Part shown: one piece after another, positions 32,001 to 40,706 of the stretch
How the letters are laid out: each line of letters starts with the position of its first letter
How positions within the stretch are numbered: the stretch's first letter is position 1
Assembly: GCA_020850995.1 (NCBI GenBank)
Contig: JADZDP010000177.1
Span: 4,712 to 68,711, forward strand
Source: Deltaproteobacteria bacterium
GTDB taxonomy: Bacteria > Myxococcota > UBA727 > VGSZ01
Reading direction: 5' to 3'
DNA length: 64,000 nucleotides
Notes under the pieces: model-generated
What the model was told of the DNA's origin: nothing
What the model saw: the letters and a program-made list of their open reading frames with translations, nothing else
Databases searched by the model: none
Position numbers and translations under genes: made by a program

Positions 32001-32867
32001 TCAGCTCGAGCAGTTGTTGGCCGCTGGGCTGCAAATGCCGACGTCGACCGGGAGCTGGAAGCTGCCGCCGGCGAAGCCACAACAGAGCTCGTCGCTGCCG
32101 CAGTCGTCGGTGCTCACGCACACCACCGCGTCGGTCTGACCGGCCTGCACGCAGCTGCCGGCGCTGACGCAGCTCGTCGCGTTGGTGGCGCCGTCGAGGC
32201 AGCACTCTTCGCTGAGCTCGCAGTCCTCGGCGCCGTCACAGACCACCGGCACGGCGAGGAGCGCGCCCGTGCAGCTGCCGCTGGACGCGATGCAGTTGCC
32301 GACGATGGCGAAGCTGACGTCGACGGTGACGCAGCAGACCGCGTTGGGGTCGCTGCAGGTGGTGGCGTCGCAGACCACGCCCGCCTCAGCGGAGCCCTCG
32401 TACTCTTGCCCCTGCACGAGCTCGCACGCGAGGCCGCTGCACACCTCGTTGCTCTCGCAGGGCACGATCACGGGGTCGCCGGCGGCGTTGCAGGTGCGCT
32501 CCGCCGACACGCTCTCGCAACCCGGCACGCACTCGCCCTCGCCCTCGCCCTCGCCGGGGTCGCCCTCGCCCTCGCCCTCGCCGGGGTCGCCCTCGCCCTC
32601 ACCCTCACCCTCACCTTCGCCCGCGGGCTCGCAGTCGCCGTCGTCGCACTCCTCGTCGTCGTCGCAGTCGCGGTCGCGCTCGCACTCCACGCACTCGCCG
32701 TCGACGCACAGGTTGTCGCCGAAGCAGTCGCTGGCTTGCGTGCAGTCGCCGGGCGCCAGGAAGAGGCCGCACGAGAGCGCCAAGGGTGCGAGCGCGAGCA
32801 GGAGCGTGAGCACGCCCACGCGGGCAGGCACGGGTGAGCGGACGGGGACGGGGTGCATCTTGGTCAT
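32001..32867 (-). CDS. Secreted Cys-rich lipoprotein with (GE)n linker (paralog of 54220..54915)
   Basis: Lipobox LALSC; GEGEGEGEGDPGEGEGEGDPGEGEGEGE; about 40 Cys in conserved spacing (ECVPGCE...ERTC...CDGAEDCE..EECC.DG...CGFAGG.F.LPVD.G.C.PAANNCS). Confidence 0.65.
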   Translation of the reverse strand: MTKMHPVPVRSPVPARVGVLTLLLALAPLALSCGLFLAPGDCTQASDCFGDNLCVDGECVECERDRDCDDDEECDDGDCEPAGEGEGEGEGEGDPGEGEGEGDPGEGEGEGECVPGCESVSAERTCNAAGDPVIVPCESNEVCSGLACELVQGQEYEGSAEAGVVCDATTCSDPNAVCCVTVDVSFAIVGNCIASSGSCTGALLAVPVVCDGAEDCELSEECCLDGATNATSCVSAGSCVQAGQTDAVVCVSTDDCGSDELCCGFAGGSFQLPVDVGICSPAANNCSS

Positions 32868-32897
32868 GGGACACCCTCGGAGGGACGGGGCGGAGTG

Positions 32898-32987
32898 GCG
32901 GAGAGAGAGGGATTCGAACCCTCGAGACGGTTTCCCGCCTACGCGATTTCCAGTCGCGTGCCTTCAGCCACTCGGCCATCTCTCCAC
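32898..32987 (-). tRNA. tRNA-Ser (anticodon GGA)
   Basis: Reverse complement reads GGAGAGATGGCCGAGTGGCTGAAGGCACGCGACTGGAAATCGCG...long variable arm...GGGTTCGAATCCCTCTCTCTCCGCCA, a class II cloverleaf. Coordinates approximate to 1 nt. Confidence 0.85.
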
Positions 32988-33102: not shown

Positions 33103-33192
33103 GGACAGCTGGCCGAGTGGCTGAAGGCACCTGACTCGAAATCAGGAGTACCCGCAAGGGTATCGGGGGTTCGAATCCCTCGCTGTCCGCCA
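33103..33192 (+). tRNA. tRNA-Ser (anticodon CGA)
   Basis: GGACAGCTGGCCGAGTGGCTGAAGGCACCTGACTCGAAATCAGG...GGGGGTTCGAATCCCTCGCTGTCCGCCA, divergent from the other tRNA-Ser. Coordinates approximate to 1 nt. Confidence 0.85.
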
Positions 33193-33263: not shown

Positions 33264-33338
33264 TCTGACTGGGTATCTGACAGGGAGCGGCTCGTGACGA
33301 TGACGTCTTGCCGCCGAGACAGGGTGTTTGACAGGGAA
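33264..33338. repeat. Direct-repeat motif copies (TCTGACTGGG, TCTGACAGGGAG, TTTGACAGGGAA) upstream of the NTase operon
   Basis: 33271-33286 gggtatctgacaggga; 33322-33338 gggtgtttgacagggaa. The same two motifs recur fused at 37712-37737. Confidence 0.5.
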
Positions 33339-33393
33339 AGGCCGCGAGATCGAGACTCTAGTTTTCTCGCTTCGGGAATGTTATGATCTAGAT

Positions 33394-33855
33394 ATGACGC
33401 TCGACAACGCAACCCTTCGCGACGCGTTGACCGCCCTCGGTGAGCTCCTCGTCGACCGCGGTGAGACCTACGACATCGTCGTCATCGGAGGCGGTGCATT
33501 GTTGCTCGGCGGCCACATCGAGCGGCCGACGAAGGATCTCGACGTCCTCGCGCGCATCGAGGGTGATCGCTGGCTCAGCGCGCAGCCGCTGCCCGATGCG
33601 CTGCGCGCCGCCGTCGCCGATGTCGGCGACGCGTTCGGGCTCGCGCGTGACTGGCTCAACTGCGGGCCGACGTCCCTGCTCGCGGGCGGGCTCCCCGACG
33701 GCTTCCCGGAACGGTTGAGCATCGAGCGTTTCGACGCGCTGACGCTCCTCACATCGGCGCGGTGGTGCCGCACGCACGATGCCTCCGAGGGCTTTCGCGG
33801 GCGGCAGCTTCTGCCGGTGCTGCAAGAGCTCGGTGTCGAGGTCGCCGATGTCTAG
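33394..33855 (+). CDS. Nucleotidyltransferase-fold (pol-beta superfamily) small protein
   Basis: hG[GS]-x13-DhD pattern (VVIGGGALLLGGHIERPTKDLDVLARI). Start taken as ATG 33394; the TTG start of the table ORF (33328) lies inside the repeat motif. Translationally coupled to the next gene. Confidence 0.5.
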   Translation: MTLDNATLRDALTALGELLVDRGETYDIVVIGGGALLLGGHIERPTKDLDVLARIEGDRWLSAQPLPDALRAAVADVGDAFGLARDWLNCGPTSLLAGGLPDGFPERLSIERFDALTLLTSARWCRTHDASEGFRGRQLLPVLQELGVEVADV

Positions 33856-34786
33856 CGCCGTCCAGAAGCAGGCCGCGGATCTCGCTTGGAGCCTCTGGAC
33901 GGAGCTCGGCATCGCCGGCGTCGTGCGGGAGCATGCCCACGTGGCAATCGATCCCGAGCCGCTCTTCGTCGCCACGCCGCTCCTTGCAGCGCACGACGCG
34001 CGCCTGCTCGAACAGGTGTCACGTTGGAGCGTGCTCTTCGGCGACTGGCTCGCGATGAGCCGAGTGCAGGCGCTGTGCAAGGCGGCGGAACCCACCGTGC
34101 ATGACGCGTTCGTGTCCTTCGCCGCGTCGATCCCCGGTGGGGGGCGGTGGACGTGTGAGGCCACGAAGATGTCGAAGCAGAAGAACCCGCCGCAGCTGAC
34201 GTCGATGGAGCTGCCGCTCTTGCGACCGGCGCTGGTCCGGCTGCGCCTGCGCGCGATATGCGGCGTCGGTGCACGCGCCGACGTCGTCGCAGAGCTCATC
34301 GGGCACGCGCGCGTATGGTTGCGTGCGTCCGACTTCGAGCATCTCGGCTACACGAAGAGAAACGTCGCTCGCTTGCTGTCCGAGCTCTGCGACGCCGGGT
34401 TTCTGCGGTCGCTGAAGGAGAAGAACGCGATCGCCTATCGCCTCGCCGACGGCGGGCGGTGGTCTGACCTCGTCGGCGCCACGGCCGTCACGTGGCCGGC
34501 ATGGCCCGCAATCTTCGACTTCGCCCGGTTGGCGCTGCGGCTCGATGGGGAACGTGCGAAGAGCGAAGGCGTGCGCCGGGTCGCGGCGGCCCAGACAGCG
34601 CACGCGCTCGAGCCGCTTTGCGATCGCTTGGACCTCGCGCAACCGCCGACCGCGACGGCGAATCCCCAGGCGTGGGCCGCAACGACCGCGTTCGTGGAGC
34701 GCGAGGTGGCAGCCTTCGCGGGCGCGACGTCGCCGTCGATGTCGCGTGCCGGCGGAGCTCGCGGCCGCGTCAGTGCCGCGCGTTGA
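33848..34786 (+). CDS. Hypothetical protein with predicted winged-helix segment, partner of the NTase-fold gene
   Basis: ATG 33848 overlaps the NTase stop. TKRNVARLLSELCDAGFLRSLKEKNAIAYRLAD resembles a wHTH. One Rx5H (RASDFEH) occurrence is noted but not diagnostic. Confidence 0.45.
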   Translation: MSSAVQKQAADLAWSLWTELGIAGVVREHAHVAIDPEPLFVATPLLAAHDARLLEQVSRWSVLFGDWLAMSRVQALCKAAEPTVHDAFVSFAASIPGGGRWTCEATKMSKQKNPPQLTSMELPLLRPALVRLRLRAICGVGARADVVAELIGHARVWLRASDFEHLGYTKRNVARLLSELCDAGFLRSLKEKNAIAYRLADGGRWSDLVGATAVTWPAWPAIFDFARLALRLDGERAKSEGVRRVAAAQTAHALEPLCDRLDLAQPPTATANPQAWAATTAFVEREVAAFAGATSPSMSRAGGARGRVSAAR

Positions 34787-34831: not shown

Positions 34832-35935
34832 TCAGCGTCCACATACCGGGCACGCAAGCCGCCCTTGCGCCGATGGCGCGCATCGTTCGCAAAGCAGGTG
34901 GATCTTGTCGTCGCATACCGCGGGGCGAGCGGCAGGGAGCAGGCAGCCGTCGCACGCAGGCACGTCGAGCGTGCGCGCGGCCGAGGGGAGGTGCAGGCTC
35001 AGCACGCGCTCCTCCTTCCGTCGACGCACGCGCACGTCGACGACGATCGTGGGCACTTCGACGACGGCGGCGAAGACGATCGTCGCGCGCGCACGCAACG
35101 TGTAGCGGGCGCGCAACTCCGCCAACTTCGCCGCGCGCTCATTCTCGAGATGTTCGACGCGGGCTTTGACCGCCGCCGGATCACGTTGCTTGCGACCGGT
35201 ACGCGTTTCGTAGATGAGCTCGTGAAAGTACGCATCGACGCGCTCGTGGTCGCGCCGGTGCCGGCGGGCGACGTTGTCCTGATGTGCGCCGGCGAGCGCG
35301 GCCAGCCGGGCGCGCAGCCGGGGCGGGAGGACCTCCGCGCGCACCGCAGGGAGGGCGCGGTGCGCTCCACGAAGCGCGCTCGTGGTGTCGAGCGCGAGCG
35401 CCGCGACCAGGGCCGAGTCCGGCGCGGCGCCGTCCGATGCGCACAACGCCAGCACCTCGAACGCCTCGTCGCGGTCGTCCGCCTCGACGACGAGGCGCGT
35501 GCCGACGAACGCGTACGCCTCGTTGCGAGCGCGTACCGCGCCGACGTCGACAACCGCGTTGCGCAGCGCGAAGCGGGCCGCGAGCGCCTCGGCCTGGCTC
35601 GCGCGCGGTGCCGCCAGCTCTGCGTCGGCGACGACGTACCCACGCAGCGACGAGCGCTCATCGACCAACCGATCGAGGAGCCCGGTCCCGAGCCCGCACG
35701 CAACGGCCCCTGTCCGTGCGGCTGACGCGACCTGCACCTCCTCCTGGAGCGCGAGCCGGGTGGCCAACGCCGACGGGAGGATCGCGAGGGCCTCCTCCTC
35801 GCCGTCGGCTGCGTTGGCGACCTCGACGAGCGCGCCGTCGCGCGCGAGGGCGTCCGCGCAGAAGCGCACGGGGCTCGGCAGTGTCGCCGGCAGTGTCGCC
35901 GGCAGTGTCGTCGGCAGCGCGGGCAGCGAGGTCAT
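34832..35935 (-). CDS. Hypothetical protein with C-terminal Cys-rich Zn-ribbon-like tail, co-operonic with SNF2 helicase
   Basis: C-terminus VPACDGCLLPAARPAVCDDKIHLLCERCAPSAQGRLACPVCGR (8 Cys + 1 His). The 4-nt overlap (35932-35935) with the upstream helicase gene implies coupling. Confidence 0.5.
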   Translation of the reverse strand: MTSLPALPTTLPATLPATLPSPVRFCADALARDGALVEVANAADGEEEALAILPSALATRLALQEEVQVASAARTGAVACGLGTGLLDRLVDERSSLRGYVVADAELAAPRASQAEALAARFALRNAVVDVGAVRARNEAYAFVGTRLVVEADDRDEAFEVLALCASDGAAPDSALVAALALDTTSALRGAHRALPAVRAEVLPPRLRARLAALAGAHQDNVARRHRRDHERVDAYFHELIYETRTGRKQRDPAAVKARVEHLENERAAKLAELRARYTLRARATIVFAAVVEVPTIVVDVRVRRRKEERVLSLHLPSAARTLDVPACDGCLLPAARPAVCDDKIHLLCERCAPSAQGRLACPVCGR

Positions 35936-37626
35936 GCGGCGAAGTCCTCGCCGAACACCGCGTCGTCGAGCTTCTTGGAGTTCTCGTACGTTCCGCGCGC
36001 CGCGCCGATCTCCGCCGCGAGCGCGTCGAAGCCACGGTCGATCTCCGCCTCGTCCTTGCTGGCGGCGTAGAGCGCGAGCACGCGCTCCTCGAGGTCGCGG
36101 TCATCGGCGAGGTTGCCGAGCACCATGTCCATCTCGCCGACGACGAGCTCGAACAGATGGAGCCGCCGATCGAGCACGTCGAGCAGCTTCTCCTCCGCCG
36201 ACCCCTTCATCGCGAGGTTGTAGACGTGCACGTCGCGCGTCTGGCCCATGCGGTGGACGCGGCCGATGCGCTGCTCGAGCAGCATCGGGTTCCACGGCAC
36301 GTCGAAGCTGACGACGACGTTGCAGTGCTGCAGGTTGGTCCCCTCGGCGCCGACGTCGGTGGACACGAGGGCGCAGCGCTCCTCGCGGAACCGCTCGACG
36401 GCGAGCGCCTTCTCGTCGGCCGACTGCGCGCCAGAGACCACGACGTGCCGCACGCCAGCGTCGTTGAACGCGCGCTCGATCGCCGCCAGCGTCGCGCGGA
36501 AGCGCGTGAACACCAGCGCGTGCCCGCCGTGCGCCCGCACCAATGCGACCAGCTGCTCGAGCTTCTTCGTCTGCGTCGCGGCCCGTGCCGCCTCGCGGGC
36601 AGCGGCGAAGGCGGGACCGTCGAGCGCGGTCGCGCGGTCAAGCGTGGCGCGCACGGCGTCAGGGCTCGAGCCCGCCTCGAGGAGCAGCGTGGTGCCGAGG
36701 AGCGTTCGCCGCGCGGCCTGCGCGTCGGCGCGCACGAGATCGACGACCCGATCGTAGAGCGCGCGCTCCGCGGCCAGCGGCTCGACGACGGCGGTGGTCA
36801 CGAAGCGCGGCGGCAGCTTCAAGCCGCACGCCGCGCGCGTGTTGCGCACCATGACGTCCCCAAGCAACTGTCGCAGCCGCTCGCGGTTCTTCGGCGAAGT
36901 CGGATCGGACTTGTCGACGAACTGCGCCTTGAACGCCGACGCCGTCGTGAGCTGGCCCGGCCGCAGCAACGTGACGAGCGCGTACAGCTCCTCGAGGCTC
37001 GTCTCGATCGGCGTGGCGGTGAGCAGCAGCAGGAAGCGGCTCTTCAGGCCGTCGACGAGCTTGTAGCCGAGGGTAGACTGCTTCTTGATGTGGTGGGCCT
37101 CGTCGACGACGACGAGATCCCACGAAGCGCTCTGGAGCAGTGGCGCGACTTTGGCGCCGCGCGCCTTGGCGAGCGACGCGAGCACGACACCGTCCCTCGC
37201 GAGGAACGCCGCCGGGTCTTGTTCGAAGGCGTGGTCATCGAGCGTCGCGGCCTGCACTCCGGCCTTCGCGAGGAGCTCGCCCCGCCACTGCGGAACGAGC
37301 GCCGGCGGTGCGATCACGAGGGTGCGGCGCGCCATGCCGCGCAGTTGGTACTCGCGCAGCACGAGGATCGCCTCGACGGTCTTGCCGAGCCCGACCTCGT
37401 CGGCGAGGAGCGCACGGCCGCGGAGCACGCGGAGCACGCGCCGGACGGTGTCGTGCTGGTAGGTGTGCGCGTCGACGCCGGCGAGCGACTGTGGCGAGAG
37501 CAGGTCGGTGAACGTCGCGGCCGACGCGAGGGTGTGCGCGCGCACCGCGAGCGAGAGGTCGACGAGCGTCATGGGCGCGCGCAGCAGCGCTGTGACGTCG
37601 CCCGTCGTCACGTCGGCGATCTCCAT
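35932..37626 (-). CDS. Compact SNF2-family (HepA/RapA-like) helicase/ATPase
   Basis: Motif I DEVGLGKT; motif II DLVVVDEAHHIK; motif III LLLTATP; C-terminal helicase motifs ...TDVGAEGTNLQ... and RIGRVHRMGQ; 564 aa. Confidence 0.8.
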   Translation of the reverse strand: MEIADVTTGDVTALLRAPMTLVDLSLAVRAHTLASAATFTDLLSPQSLAGVDAHTYQHDTVRRVLRVLRGRALLADEVGLGKTVEAILVLREYQLRGMARRTLVIAPPALVPQWRGELLAKAGVQAATLDDHAFEQDPAAFLARDGVVLASLAKARGAKVAPLLQSASWDLVVVDEAHHIKKQSTLGYKLVDGLKSRFLLLLTATPIETSLEELYALVTLLRPGQLTTASAFKAQFVDKSDPTSPKNRERLRQLLGDVMVRNTRAACGLKLPPRFVTTAVVEPLAAERALYDRVVDLVRADAQAARRTLLGTTLLLEAGSSPDAVRATLDRATALDGPAFAAAREAARAATQTKKLEQLVALVRAHGGHALVFTRFRATLAAIERAFNDAGVRHVVVSGAQSADEKALAVERFREERCALVSTDVGAEGTNLQHCNVVVSFDVPWNPMLLEQRIGRVHRMGQTRDVHVYNLAMKGSAEEKLLDVLDRRLHLFELVVGEMDMVLGNLADDRDLEERVLALYAASKDEAEIDRGFDALAAEIGAARGTYENSKKLDDAVFGEDFAA

Positions 37627-37711
37627 GGGCGGCGGCTCGACGCCAGCACCTCATCGCGAACGCGCGTCGCCATCGCCGCCGAGTAGCTGAAACGGCGGGC
37701 CGTTGCGATCC

Positions 37712-37737
37712 GGTTTGACAGGGAATCTGACAGGGTA
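37712..37737. repeat. Second copy of the TTTGACAGGGAA + TCTGACAGGG motif pair (same orientation), ~85 nt upstream of the helicase start
   Basis: ggtttgacagggaatctgacagggta; compare 33264-33338. Confidence 0.5.
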
Positions 37738-38009
37738 CGCCGTGCGAACGGTGCCCCTCGGTGCGCACACCGCCGCTCGCGCCGGCGGAGCCGGACGCGG
37801 CCGGCGCCGGGGCGTCGTACGTCTCGAACGTGCGCGTCCTGCAACGCGACGATGGACCAGCCCAGTAGCTCGGCTTCTCAGCTCGATTCACCCACCTATG
37901 GCCCTGGTGGCCGTGGCCGGTCTACGTTCACGACGCGGCGAGCCCCGCGGGGCGCCGATTCGCGCGCCGCTCGTCCAGAGAGCACACGCCCCGCGCAGAG
38001 GACCGGCTC

Positions 38010-39191
38010 ATGAAGAAGGCCACAGCCAGACTACGAGCGACCCGGTCGATCACGCTCTCTATCGCCAACTTCGCCCAGATCCGCAGTGTCGACCTCGCGC
38101 TTGGCGACCTGACCGTCCTTGTGGGTCCGCAAGGCGCAGGCAAGAGCCTCGCTCTACAGTGGCTCAAGGCGGGGATGGACGGGAAGCAGGTCATCGATGC
38201 GCTGCGCGCCGCCGGTCACCCCACCGAAAGATCCGACGTCGTCGTTGACCTCATCTTCGGCACCGGCATGGCACCGGCATGGCGGGCCGACTCGACCGTC
38301 ACTCTCGACGGAAAGACCATCACTCCGAAGGTACTGAGTCGTGTTGGAAACGGAGAGGAGCGCCTCTTCTTCATTCCTGCGCACCGCTCGATGCTGATTA
38401 GCGACGGCTGGGCGGCGCCCTTCCAAAAGCTCGGCTCCGACACCCCGGCAGTGGCGCGCCTCTTTAGCCAGAACCTCTTTGATCGCTTCAGCGGCAAGGA
38501 CGCGGGCACGCTCTTCCCCGTGGAGAAGCGCCTCAAGGCGGAGATCCGAAAACAGATCGACGACGCTGTCTTTCACGGTGGCAAGGTCGGAATCGCAGAG
38601 GATGCTCAGCATGCCCGTCGCCTCCGCCTCGCGCACGGGGACATGCACCTGCCGTTCATGACGTGGACTGCGGGCCAGCGCGAATTCACCCCACTCCTCC
38701 TCGCCCTCTATCACCTCCTCCCTTCGACCAAGCTGCGCAAGCGCAAAGGGACGGACTGGGTCGTTCTCGAGGAGCCGGAGATGGGACTTCACCCGCAAGC
38801 GATCACAGCTGTGATGCTGCTCGTCCTCGATCTCCTCTGGCGCGGCTACCGGGTCGTGATGTCGACTCACTCCCCGCACGTGCTGACCATGCTGTGGATG
38901 ATGCAGCGCCTCAAGGAGAACGCCGCTCGGTGGCAGCTCGTCTGCGAGGCCTTTGACGTGAAGGTACCGGCGCAGATGCGCAAGGTCGCGGAGGCCGCGC
39001 TCCAAAAAGACTACCGCGCCCACTTTCTGACATTCGGCAACGATGGGCATGTGACGTCGACGGAGATCACCGGTCTCGACCCATCTTCGGAGAACGAGGG
39101 CGAGGCCGAATGGGGCGGTCTCACGGGCTACTCGTCGCGTTTCGGTGACGTCGTGCGCAAGGCAGTGAACGAGGCCGAGAGTGGGCGCTAG
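38010..39191 (+). CDS. ABC-type (AAA_21/OLD-like) ATPase
   Basis: Walker A GPQGAGKS; Walker B/D-loop WVVLEEPEMGLHPQ; H-loop STHSPHVL; 393 aa. Codon usage and GC look visibly lower than the surrounding DNA. Confidence 0.7.
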   Translation: MKKATARLRATRSITLSIANFAQIRSVDLALGDLTVLVGPQGAGKSLALQWLKAGMDGKQVIDALRAAGHPTERSDVVVDLIFGTGMAPAWRADSTVTLDGKTITPKVLSRVGNGEERLFFIPAHRSMLISDGWAAPFQKLGSDTPAVARLFSQNLFDRFSGKDAGTLFPVEKRLKAEIRKQIDDAVFHGGKVGIAEDAQHARRLRLAHGDMHLPFMTWTAGQREFTPLLLALYHLLPSTKLRKRKGTDWVVLEEPEMGLHPQAITAVMLLVLDLLWRGYRVVMSTHSPHVLTMLWMMQRLKENAARWQLVCEAFDVKVPAQMRKVAEAALQKDYRAHFLTFGNDGHVTSTEITGLDPSSENEGEAEWGGLTGYSSRFGDVVRKAVNEAESGR

Positions 39192-39660
39192 CAAGGGCAG
39201 GAAGGCGACGCCCGTAAGGGCCGCGCTGGTCGACAACAGCCACCTGCTCAACCTCATTCAGGAAGGCCTCGGCGCGCTCAAGAGCTCGGACAAGGCCCTC
39301 ATCGCTGCCGAGCTCAAGTCCGCCTTCCTCGACAGCATCGACATCGACACAGGGCTCAGGGCGGGACACGATCAGGAGAATCGCTGGGACTACTTGCTAG
39401 GTCACGGGGCGAGAGAGGTTGTCGTTGCGCTCGAGACGCACGCAGCTCGCCAAGGAGAGATTCGCACGATCATCAGGAAGCGCCGCGCGGCGCTTGAACA
39501 GCTCAGGCCCCACCTGCGCGCCGGCTCCAAGATCACCGCGTGGTTCTGGGTTGCAACCGGCTCCGTCCGCTTTGCCGACACAGAGAAGGCCCCCCGCATA
39601 CTCGATCAGAATGGGATCACGTTCGTCGATAGGTGCCTCAAGGGGGCGCACCTCCGATGA
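39181..39660 (+). CDS. Small hypothetical protein (159 aa) coupled to the ABC ATPase; possible effector
   Basis: Overlaps the ATPase 3' end by 11 nt. No motif recognised with confidence (acidic-residue cluster ...VVVALETH...). Confidence 0.4.
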   Translation: MGASKGRKATPVRAALVDNSHLLNLIQEGLGALKSSDKALIAAELKSAFLDSIDIDTGLRAGHDQENRWDYLLGHGAREVVVALETHAARQGEIRTIIRKRRAALEQLRPHLRAGSKITAWFWVATGSVRFADTEKAPRILDQNGITFVDRCLKGAHLR

Positions 39661-39836: not shown

Positions 39837-40706
39837 CTACCGAATGGTAAACGCCAGCAAGCCCGGCAAGCTGGTGGTGAACACGCCGGTCGCGTCGTCG
39901 AGCTGATGGAACCACACCTGCAGCCGCAGGGAGCAGGACGCGGCGCCGTCCTCGTCGTGAAACACGCCGGCGGGTTGGCAGTAGCTCACGAAGGGCATCT
40001 GGCGCGTCAGCTCGGTGCACACCTCGTTGGCGGCCTCGATGGCGTCGTCGCAGCGGGCGCTGTCCATGGCCTCGAGCGCGCGCGCGTCGTGGTGCACCAT
40101 CAGGTGGCTGCGCGGTCCCTCCCAGGCGTCGGCGTCGATGTCGGCGATGTTGGCGCGCGCGAACACCTCTTCCACAACGTGCTCGCAGCCCTGGAACTCC
40201 TCTTGGTTGCAGTTGGCGTCGCAGCCGTCCCACGACTCGTGGTTGCCGTCGTCGCACACCTCGCCGTCGTCGAGCGCGCCGTTGCCGCAGCTTGGCGCCG
40301 GGCCCACCAGCGGCGCGCCCGCGAAGTCGAGCACGTGCACGTCGTGGAGGGGGCCGGTGTCGCCGGGGCGCCAGACCTCGAAGCGCACGGCGCAGCGCGG
40401 CGTCACGTGCGCGTAGAAGAACGCGGTGGTGTAGCCGCACGAGCTCACCGTGCCGTCTTGGTAGAGCTCGCCGCACACCGCTGCGAGCTCTTGGTCCACG
40501 GCGTCGCAGCTGGCGGCGCTGACCTCGCCCTCGAGCGTGGCGTCGACCAGCTGGTGCACGCGGTACTCGAGCTCGCCGCTGCCGGGGCGCTCCGGCTCGG
40601 TGATGGCGCGCTTGACGACGCTGGCGAGCTCCCTGGTCTGTTCGGCCGGCGATTGGCCGCAGGCGGCGAGGGCACACACGAGGAGGGTGGGGGTGAGCTT
40701 GCGCAT
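39837..40706 (-). CDS. Lipoprotein with one Myxococcus cysteine-rich repeat
   Basis: Lipobox LVCALAAC; CGNGALDDGEVCDDGNHESWDGCDANC. Confidence 0.6.
   Translation of the reverse strand: MRKLTPTLLVCALAACGQSPAEQTRELASVVKRAITEPERPGSGELEYRVHQLVDATLEGEVSAASCDAVDQELAAVCGELYQDGTVSSCGYTTAFFYAHVTPRCAVRFEVWRPGDTGPLHDVHVLDFAGAPLVGPAPSCGNGALDDGEVCDDGNHESWDGCDANCNQEEFQGCEHVVEEVFARANIADIDADAWEGPRSHLMVHHDARALEAMDSARCDDAIEAANEVCTELTRQMPFVSYCQPAGVFHDEDGAASCSLRLQVWFHQLDDATGVFTTSLPGLLAFTIR

Follow-up and report, generated by a model that had tools for sequence, protein, structure and literature searches.

A 64,000-nucleotide stretch of the genome of a Deltaproteobacteria bacterium (contig JADZDP010000177.1; the whole stretch is called the window below) carries a gene for a compact SNF2-family ATPase that overlaps the gene for a smaller partner protein, which has no Pfam, NCBIfam or PADLOC family match. 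We are highly confident that these two genes are a YqhH/YqhG-type two-subunit SNF2 module, and the pair in the window is a zinc-bearing, previously undescribed variant of the uncharacterised yqhH–yqhG kind. Probably, the two proteins are the subunits of a split RapA-clade Swi2/Snf2 translocase of double-stranded DNA (dsDNA), again of the YqhH/YqhG type. With moderate confidence, the partner can be read as the post-motor module of RapA and BrxHII supplied in trans, that is, as the subunit that targets or regulates a dsDNA translocase without a nuclease.

YqhG (PF11079) still counts among the domains of unknown function, and the compact SNF2 ATPases of the YqhH type have no assigned mechanism. 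A large unannotated family (~1400 clusters at 50% identity) is now tied to YqhG. In turn, YqhG would gain a structural interpretation, namely a RapA/BrxHII post-motor module carried by a separate, fast-evolving subunit.

Two overlapping genes conserved as a pair

The motor gene occupies positions 35932-37626 (− strand) and encodes a YqhH-like protein of 564 amino acids (aa), as taken from the six-frame list of open reading frames (ORFs) and from Pfam matches to SNF2-rel_dom (1.4e-37) and Helicase_C (1.6e-22). The partner gene (34832-35935, − strand; 367 aa) comes from the same ORF list and is classed by profile homology as an accessory subunit of the YqhG superfamily. The stop and start codons share 4 nucleotides (nt) in an ATGA at 35932-35935 (− strand; junction read as gccgcATGAcc), and this overlap implies that translation of the two genes is coupled. 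The ATGA-coupled operon proposed in a first-pass annotation of this DNA is upheld by the 4-nt overlap and by the conservation of the pairing.

The translation of the motor contains DEVGLGKT, DEAHH, LLLTATP and QRIGRVHRMGQ, and motifs I, II, III and VI are present; the earlier statement that all SNF2 motifs can be found agrees with both the translation and the Pfam matches. The protein consists of the RecA lobes and Snf2-specific inserts only, without N-terminal Tudor or TPR domains and without C-terminal accessory domains. Its ORF begins about 75 residues ahead of motif I and is not extendable upstream (the start codon is the first after a stop), and a Pfam scan of the first 60 residues gave no match. 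These ORF limits bear out the description of a compact helicase of 564 aa without the N-terminal domains of RapA. The closest solved structures are RapA (2e-38) and Sulfolobus Rad54 (1z63); with each of the NCBIfam models DrmD, RapA and DpdE, the motor scores far under the cut-off. Two motor lengths are found in the family, a compact form of about 575-600 aa, as in the window, and a form of about 770-820 aa with an N-terminal extension that has weak TPR matches and no Tudor domains. The compact form also occurs in low-GC Elusimicrobia, where ORF calls are unambiguous.

How widely is this arrangement found? A locus scan with one genome per species returned 77 loci, mostly from Myxococcota. Loci also came from Desulfobacterota, Acidobacteriota, Binatia, Elusimicrobiota, Fermentibacterota, Lentisphaerota, Gemmatimonadota and Bradymonadales, so that at least eight phyla are covered. 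In 73 of 80 loci, the gene directly upstream of the partner, with the same orientation, encodes a full-length SNF2 orthologue (38-62% identity); the exceptions are truncated contigs. Because the same order recurs in these 73 loci from many phyla, the SNF2-then-partner arrangement is far beyond chance. Of 71 loci, 45 have a 4-nt NTGA overlap of the two genes; in most of the remaining loci the genes are spaced by −11 to +16 nt. The pair is a genuine, conserved two-gene module, and no third gene shared by the whole family emerged when the ORFs of all loci were clustered. ORF clusters 2-5 were considered as further conserved genes and rejected as shadow ORFs of the two genes.

A plasmid collection was also searched with the window motor. 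This gave 36 full-length compact homologues, which belong to cyanobacterial MOBP plasmids, a Rhodovastum plasmid, about 20 haloarchaeal plasmids and two Bacillales records. The SNF2-partner order is found on cyanobacterial, alphaproteobacterial and haloarchaeal plasmids (loci L093-L097) and in Bacillales; the pairing of motor and partner is ancient and extends over both Bacteria and haloarchaea. A tblastn search of plasmids and phages with the partner found nothing, the plasmid partners being too divergent, and they were reached via the motor instead. No relatives were found in a scan of viral contigs.

Two of the plasmids can be described further. On pOSC7112.03 of Oscillatoria nigro-viridis PCC 7112 (L095, 4196-9662; MOBP), genes for MobC, a relaxase, the SNF2 protein and the partner follow each other on one strand, with an AbiEii toxin gene nearby. 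Calothrix plasmid5 (L093), likewise MOBP-typed, carries the pair with a partner that has no zinc ligands, as on the Oscillatoria plasmid.

The connection to YqhG was made by profile comparison in both directions. The gathering score of PF11079 is 25 bits; the window partner is under this threshold, and the best single relative (P0200) reaches 19.3 bits. Low-GC members of the partner family match PF11079 collinearly over residues ~120-245 at sub-threshold values (E 6e-4 to 0.05), and their consensus reaches 23.5 bits (E 3.2e-5). In the opposite direction, the partner-family profile matches a Brevibacillus 'YqhG family protein' at 35.4 bits (E 3.6e-7, profile positions 6-281) and Bacillus YqhG at 22 bits (E 3.7e-3); these two are bona fide PF11079 members (1e-73 and 7e-126, respectively). 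The same profile recognises the protein encoded downstream of the motor in Rhodovastum (8e-104), Calothrix (1e-67), Oscillatoria (1e-64), Halorientalis (7.5e-18) and Haloarcula (1.6e-8). A word-index search seeded with low-GC members gave no bridge to YqhG, and the bridge was formed by the Bacillales records in the plasmid collection. The partner is placed in the YqhG superfamily because of the reciprocal profile matches and the position of the gene.

The motor is 33-34% identical to Bacillus and Brevibacillus YqhH over 93-94% of its length. As in yqhH–yqhG, a gene for an SNF2 protein of about 560 aa is followed on the same strand by the partner gene, overlapping or nearly so, and the reciprocal matches with YqhG cover the N-terminal domain, the sheet and the helical hairpin of the partner. 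In contrast to YqhG, which has 271 aa in Bacillus and ends just past the hairpin, the 367-aa window partner continues with an RRRK β-hairpin and a C3HC4 zinc module, and these are additions in the branch of the window pair. The settings of the pairs differ as well. In Bacillus (L092) and Brevibacillus (L098) the pair lies beside gcvT-gcvPA-gcvPB with no defence genes, a fixed gcvT/gcvP synteny, whereas the window pair is found in a variable region by tRNA genes and has defence-like neighbours.

In B. subtilis, yqhH and yqhG are adjacent and yqhG lies immediately upstream of the sinIR operon (PMC6123443). A yqhH knockout of Bacillus thuringiensis is sensitive to ultraviolet (UV) light, and the purified protein has ATPase activity (PMC10054049). 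The UV phenotype of the knockout hints at genome maintenance. Bacillus species are tractable hosts for working out the basic function of the pair.

Predicted fold and zinc module of the partner

A first search with the partner returned 37 clusters of 264-380 aa, nearly all of them of about 350-370 aa and none with Pfam domains. An exhaustive profile search extended this to 1413 clusters (50% identity) at E≤1e-3, with 345 at E≤1e-30. Almost all of them encode no further domain partner and stand alone at 340-390 aa, and the members with a returned source name are all labelled 'hypothetical protein'. Fusions of SNF2 and partner were absent among the 150 best representatives, and the 1091-aa P0160 has no SNF2 domain. 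In P0141, P0131 and about 15 other representatives of 440-670 aa, a C-terminal extension ends in a winged helix-turn-helix (HTH_IclR 6.4e-7, MarR-like), a sequence feature that points to direct DNA binding by these variants.

The partner was modelled with AlphaFold2 on a 63-sequence alignment, giving a predicted local distance difference test (pLDDT) of 91.4 and a predicted template modelling score (pTM) of 0.83. According to the model, residues 1-20 (35876-35935, − strand) are a disordered N-terminal extension, which is not present in homologues. Three tandem 12-nt repeats at 35876-35917 encode LPAT/LPTT in this N-terminus, and the homologues are without them. Residues ~21-120 (35576-35875, − strand) are modelled as a degenerate restriction-endonuclease-like (REase-like, PD-(D/E)XK-fold) domain with the order α-β-β-α-β-β-α-β, and Sen15, HindIII and FokI are listed next to the description of the model. 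No conserved PD-(D/E)XK catalytic residues were found in the partner alignments.

Residues ~121-318 (34982-35575, − strand) are assigned, from the model and from conserved columns, to an antiparallel β-sheet with a two-helix hairpin. The strands are very long (128-151, 155-165, 281-305 and 308-317), and the sheet is interrupted by the hairpin (200-277), which is made up of helices 200-246 and 253-277. It is with this sheet and hairpin region that YqhG (PF11079) aligns. Two basic motifs are invariant, RRxxRDxxRxxxYF (224-237) and RRRK (304-307). The first-pass annotation had recognised no catalytic domain in the partner, and indeed there is no catalytic signature. It had also left open a nuclease, SWIM or sensor fold; the prediction gives a confident fold that includes a degenerate nuclease-like domain, with neither active nuclease residues nor a SWIM domain.

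The remaining residues, ~319-367 (34835-34981, − strand), are identified by ligand conservation as a C3HC4 zinc module that is predicted to hold two zinc ions. The ligands are C328, C331, C341, H346, C349, C352, C362 and C365, spaced C-x2-C-x9-C-x4-H-x2-C-x2-C-x9-C-x2-C, in the C3HC4 order of RING fingers. The protein had previously been described as ending in an 8-Cys Zn-ribbon, which must be corrected to seven Cys and one His. The accompanying remark that it does not belong to the SWIM type was accurate, for the pattern is CxxC…C…H…CxxC…CxxC with no CxCxnCxH and no SWIM match in Pfam.

Of 283 aligned family members, 261 retain the full set of eight ligands; the dominant spacing is 9-4-2-9. 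Four members have jointly lost ligands 3, 4, 7 and 8 and retained ligands 1, 2, 5 and 6, which fits what a cross-brace arrangement predicts. The Cys-His gap of 4 compares with 1-3 in canonical RING domains. No RING family matches the zinc module significantly, and the RING matches that recur are all sub-threshold: in the PDB, 8i3x, TRIM56, Deltex2 and RING2 (E 0.8-9); among families, zf-C3HC4_3 (2.4e-3, in 2 of 116 members) and Prok-RING_4 (0.052).

Haloarchaeal partners have a single CxxC…CxxC site, cyanobacterial partners have lost the ligands, and Bacillales YqhG has no such module. Since it is mononuclear, lost or absent in these three groups, the zinc module is an evolutionarily variable accessory and not the catalytic core. 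The opposite trend is seen in two Elusimicrobia partners (L049, 9983-11086; L078, 9983-11095) and in the partner of an unclassified bacterial metagenome-assembled genome (L067, 9953-11083), where the C-terminal module is extended by additional CxxC/CH pairs (…CPxCGKxxCxxCHxxxCPKC). The sequences of these three partners suggest a third zinc site.

The two genes evolve at different rates. Between the window and contigs of one strain with a 98%-identical partner, the motor has 21 synonymous and 2 non-synonymous differences, a ratio of non-synonymous to synonymous rates (dN/dS) of 0.033, whereas the counts for the partner are 4 synonymous and 8 non-synonymous (dN/dS 0.78; Fisher p = 7e-4 against the motor). 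The changes in the partner are at residues 13, 42, 48, 69, 71, 134, 138 and 221; most of these belong to the REase-like domain or the sheet, and all invariant motifs are spared. In other genomes whose motor is 55-62% identical, the identity of the partner is 37-45%. Such fast evolution would be in keeping with a subunit for specificity or sensing.

Relation to RapA and possible functions

In a 2026 comparison of BREX helicases, the region that follows the Swi2/Snf2 motor in RapA and BrxHII was described in two parts, the first of which is a degenerate, catalytically dead and fast-evolving REase-like domain with RapA, VRR-NUC and Hjc as structural neighbours (PMC12839542). The model of the partner has the same kind of folds in the same order, and the topology of its sheet and hairpin matches that of the RapA/BrxHII C-terminal α+β domain described in the same work (PMC12839542). 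By fold and order, the two main domains of the partner resemble the RapA Spacer, which is degenerate and REase-like, and the RapA C-terminal sheet with its coiled-coil insert, and they may be equivalent to these domains. The combined length of 564 and 367 aa is close to the 968 aa of RapA. Unlike RapA, which is a single 968-aa chain (PDB 6BOG, 4S20), the window system has its post-motor domains on a separate gene and adds a zinc module. The tandem N-terminal Tudor domains with which RapA binds RNA polymerase and autoinhibits its ATPase are absent here. The motor scores 175.7 bits with the NCBIfam RapA model, against a cut-off of 576, and the family consensus of the partner has a faint match to RapA_C (E 0.28).

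DrmD of DISARM and BrxHII of BREX type 3 and BREX-related systems provide the highest-scoring PADLOC and NCBIfam models for the motor. The scores with DrmD are 205 and 218 bits, however, compared with cut-offs of 610 or 950, and none of the DrmA/B/C, methyltransferase, PglZ, BrxC or PglXI genes accompanies the pair in the window. DrmD and BrxHII are single chains of about 870-1040 aa by model length (BrxHII being Tudor–SNF2–inactive REase–α+β), whereas the window architecture is split and has no Tudor domain. Residues 173-295 of the partner weakly match positions 905-1018 of a 1021-position DrmD model (E 1.6e-3), and an equally weak match to positions 953-1034 of the 1040-position PADLOC DrmD model is found as well (E 1e-3). 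Another kind of bacterial gene pair joins an SNF2 protein with a SWIM zinc-finger protein, for example ywqA–ywqB of B. subtilis. These pairs have in common with the window pair that an SNF2 ATPase is genetically coupled to an uncharacterised zinc-binding partner, but the SWIM partners carry CxCxnCxH, in contrast to the C3HC4 module and otherwise YqhG-like protein found here.

Several points weigh against the interpretation of the pair as a split RapA-clade translocase. Alignment of the family profiles by hhalign with E. coli RapA and five RapA-clade C-termini gave probabilities of 0.1-8%, which are not significant. The view that the partner is, by sequence, a split DrmD was rejected, as the match to the DrmD C-terminus appears in only 4 of 63 members and is a hint only. 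A physical complex of motor and partner would follow from genetics only. The Tudor domains of RapA are missing, and instead of them the long-form relatives show weak TPR matches, so a link to RNA polymerase is not implied. Finally, a dN/dS of 0.78 calculated from 12 changes could reflect relaxed constraint rather than a role in specificity.

If the two proteins are nevertheless subunits of a split translocase, the 564-aa protein would be a bare ATP-driven motor, and the ATGA overlap would keep synthesis of the partner in step with it. The partner would provide in trans what RapA, BrxHII and DrmD carry in cis, an inactive REase-like domain and a sheet with a coiled-coil hairpin, to which the lineage of the window would have added a C3HC4 module with two predicted zinc ions. 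With its basic surfaces and zinc module, the partner might dock the motor on a substrate. This could be a specific DNA or a protein-DNA complex, for instance a stalled RNA polymerase, and the motor would remodel or displace it by moving along duplex DNA. Since neither protein has a nuclease or effector site, the pair alone would be a remodeller or sensor and not a restriction enzyme. The split arrangement predicts a 1:1 complex, ATPase activity or targeting that depends on the partner, and two zinc ions per chain.

Which role might such a translocase have in the cell? Genome maintenance or the removal of protein roadblocks is a tentative assignment, to which we give a little less than an even chance. 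A role as a defence or sensor module is rather unlikely, and one in RING-type modification is very doubtful.

Nevertheless, an anti-phage or anti-plasmid role of the pair is possible and was favoured by the first-pass annotation. The pair would then be either a complete two-gene system or the sensor and motor module of a larger one, in which recognition of foreign DNA or of a phage protein falls to the fast-evolving partner and the motor blocks replication or passes the target to other effectors; we consider this improbable, with perhaps one chance in a few. In its favour, the window pair lies between PDC-M56A/B and a DUF6036/AbiEii-like pair by tRNA-Ser genes, and other loci have TIR, PemK, MqsA, Uma2 and IS66 genes (L085) or a DUF3696 ATPase with an RNA ligase, plus RHS toxins (L086). 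The pair is also carried by mobilizable cyanobacterial plasmids and by haloarchaeal plasmids, with a DUF1156 methyltransferase and AAA ATPases near it on the Haloarcula plasmid, and it is linked in ~13 of 90 loci to a BrxD/Lhr module (a 290-aa protein, two BrxD-like ATPases and an Lhr/BrxHI-like helicase). DrmD and BrxHII as the closest PADLOC models of the motor, the lack of conserved synteny among Myxococcota and the dN/dS of the partner point in the same direction. On the other side, both proteins are without an effector domain, no PADLOC model recognises the partner, and the motor stays far under the family cut-offs; no relatives came from the phage or viral collections searched; and the G+C of the pair (0.71-0.745) equals that of the flanking chromosome, unlike that of PDC-M56 (0.63-0.65), with no att-type repeat. 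The context of the pair is varied, ranging from housekeeping surroundings (L002, L088 and L090) to islands with insertion sequences, toxin-antitoxin or TIR genes and to plasmids. Core synteny without defence neighbours, which the first-pass annotation had named as evidence against its proposal, exists in at least one lineage, Bacillus and Brevibacillus, at the gcv operon. Thus the defence-like neighbours are real in the window, but the association of the pair with defence genes is not general, and defence-gene neighbours in one genome are insufficient for a defence-system label.

It is tempting to consider the pair of the zinc-bearing branch as an autonomous invader-sensing module, in which the rapidly diversifying, inactive nuclease-like domain and the RING-like domain of the partner recognise foreign DNA or a protein of a phage or plasmid and license the motor to strip or stall the replication or transcription machinery of the invader. 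This is quite unlikely; if true, two genes without a nuclease would make up a defence system, and the pair would be a prokaryotic forerunner of eukaryotic RING-associated SNF2 remodellers. Still less probable is that the zinc module is a functional RING, E3-like or protein-recruiting, which would make the pair a prokaryotic counterpart of Rad5, HLTF and Rad16 and would couple DNA translocation to protein modification or turnover. The C3HC4 order and spacing, the recurring weak RING matches and the joint loss of ligands 3, 4, 7 and 8 would agree with this, but every RING match is sub-threshold, the Cys-His gap is longer than the canonical one, the module is dispensable in haloarchaea, cyanobacteria and Bacillales, and no E1, E2, ubiquitin-like or JAB genes occur in any neighbourhood examined. 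The least likely explanation, and one that we all but discount, is that the partner in the window genome is a decaying, relaxed and non-functional remnant beside a functional helicase. The dN/dS of 0.78, from the sole close-strain comparison, is what speaks for it. The frame, however, is intact, and the window protein conforms to all 28 columns that are invariant in alignment A1, the eight zinc ligands among them; at least nine contigs have retained the same 367-aa protein; the substitutions spare conserved motifs; and the AlphaFold model is confident.

Neighbouring genes and repeats

In Desulfatiglandales-type loci, the BrxD/Lhr module is in the same operon as the pair; it is also linked to the pair in L064 and L089, and in L040 it is divergently transcribed. 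The six-gene operon of L044 (8203-16868; also in L039, L043, L048, L050 and L056) begins with the SNF2 and partner genes, followed by genes for a 290-aa protein without a Pfam or PADLOC match, two BrxD-like ATPases (PF10923; PADLOC BrxD/SngB) and an Lhr-like helicase (PADLOC BrxHI, 4.9e-65, or SngC). Stops and starts overlap among the four downstream genes. This operon may be an undescribed composite system. The ATPase–Lhr dyad, which resembles BrxD–BrxHI and Shango, is linked to the pair in some loci only; it is absent from the window and not family-wide. In Desulforhabdus amnigena (L088, 14971-16892), an RVT_1 reverse transcriptase gene followed by PNP_UDP_1 lies about 5 kb downstream of the pair in a retron-like arrangement.

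The window itself was described earlier as tRNA-adjacent with defence-like gene pairs, and this is what is found. Two tRNA-Ser genes (32896-32985, − strand; 33103-33192, + strand) lie on one side of the SNF2-partner pair, together with a gene for a DUF6036/AbiEii-like nucleotidyltransferase (33328-33855; weak matches). On the other side are PDC-M56A (38010-39191; PADLOC match, 1.8e-117) and PDC-M56B (39181-39660; PADLOC match, 3.4e-21). A search of the window found no att-type (attachment-site) or tRNA-derived direct repeat bounding an island.

The DUF6036 gene overlaps the start of a gene for a 312-335-aa protein without a family match (both within 33328-34786), and the two stand tail-to-tail with the partner gene, with a 45-nt gap between. 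They are kept in related-strain contigs (L081-L084), absent from other loci, and may be a toxin-antitoxin-like module.

The G+C of PDC-M56A/B is 0.63-0.65, against 0.70-0.745 in the surroundings. The DNA of PDC-M56A is identical to the copy in a related strain (0 of 1182 nt differ), and the adjoining SNF2 gene differs at 23 sites; PDC-M56B shows 1 synonymous and 4 non-synonymous differences. PDC-M56A/B looks like a recent horizontal acquisition or the result of a sweep.

The divergent intergenic region 5' of the SNF2 gene (37627-38009) is its presumed promoter region, and no sigma-70 promoter consensus or intrinsic terminator consensus was found at the locus. This region holds one copy of a 20-nt motif, TGACAGGG-N4-TGACAGGG, which occurs three times in the 64-kb window (33266-33285, 33317-33336 and 37716-37735). 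All three copies are intergenic and inside the island, two of them 5' of the DUF6036 gene and the third in the divergent region that separates PDC-M56A from the SNF2 gene. By chance, 0.55 copies would be expected, and three copies were reached in 3 of 100 shuffles. The motif could be a shared operator or promoter element. The island is flanked by genes for two Cys-rich, probably secreted proteins (32001-32867 and 39837-40706, both on the − strand), the first of which contains GEGE/acidic repeats.

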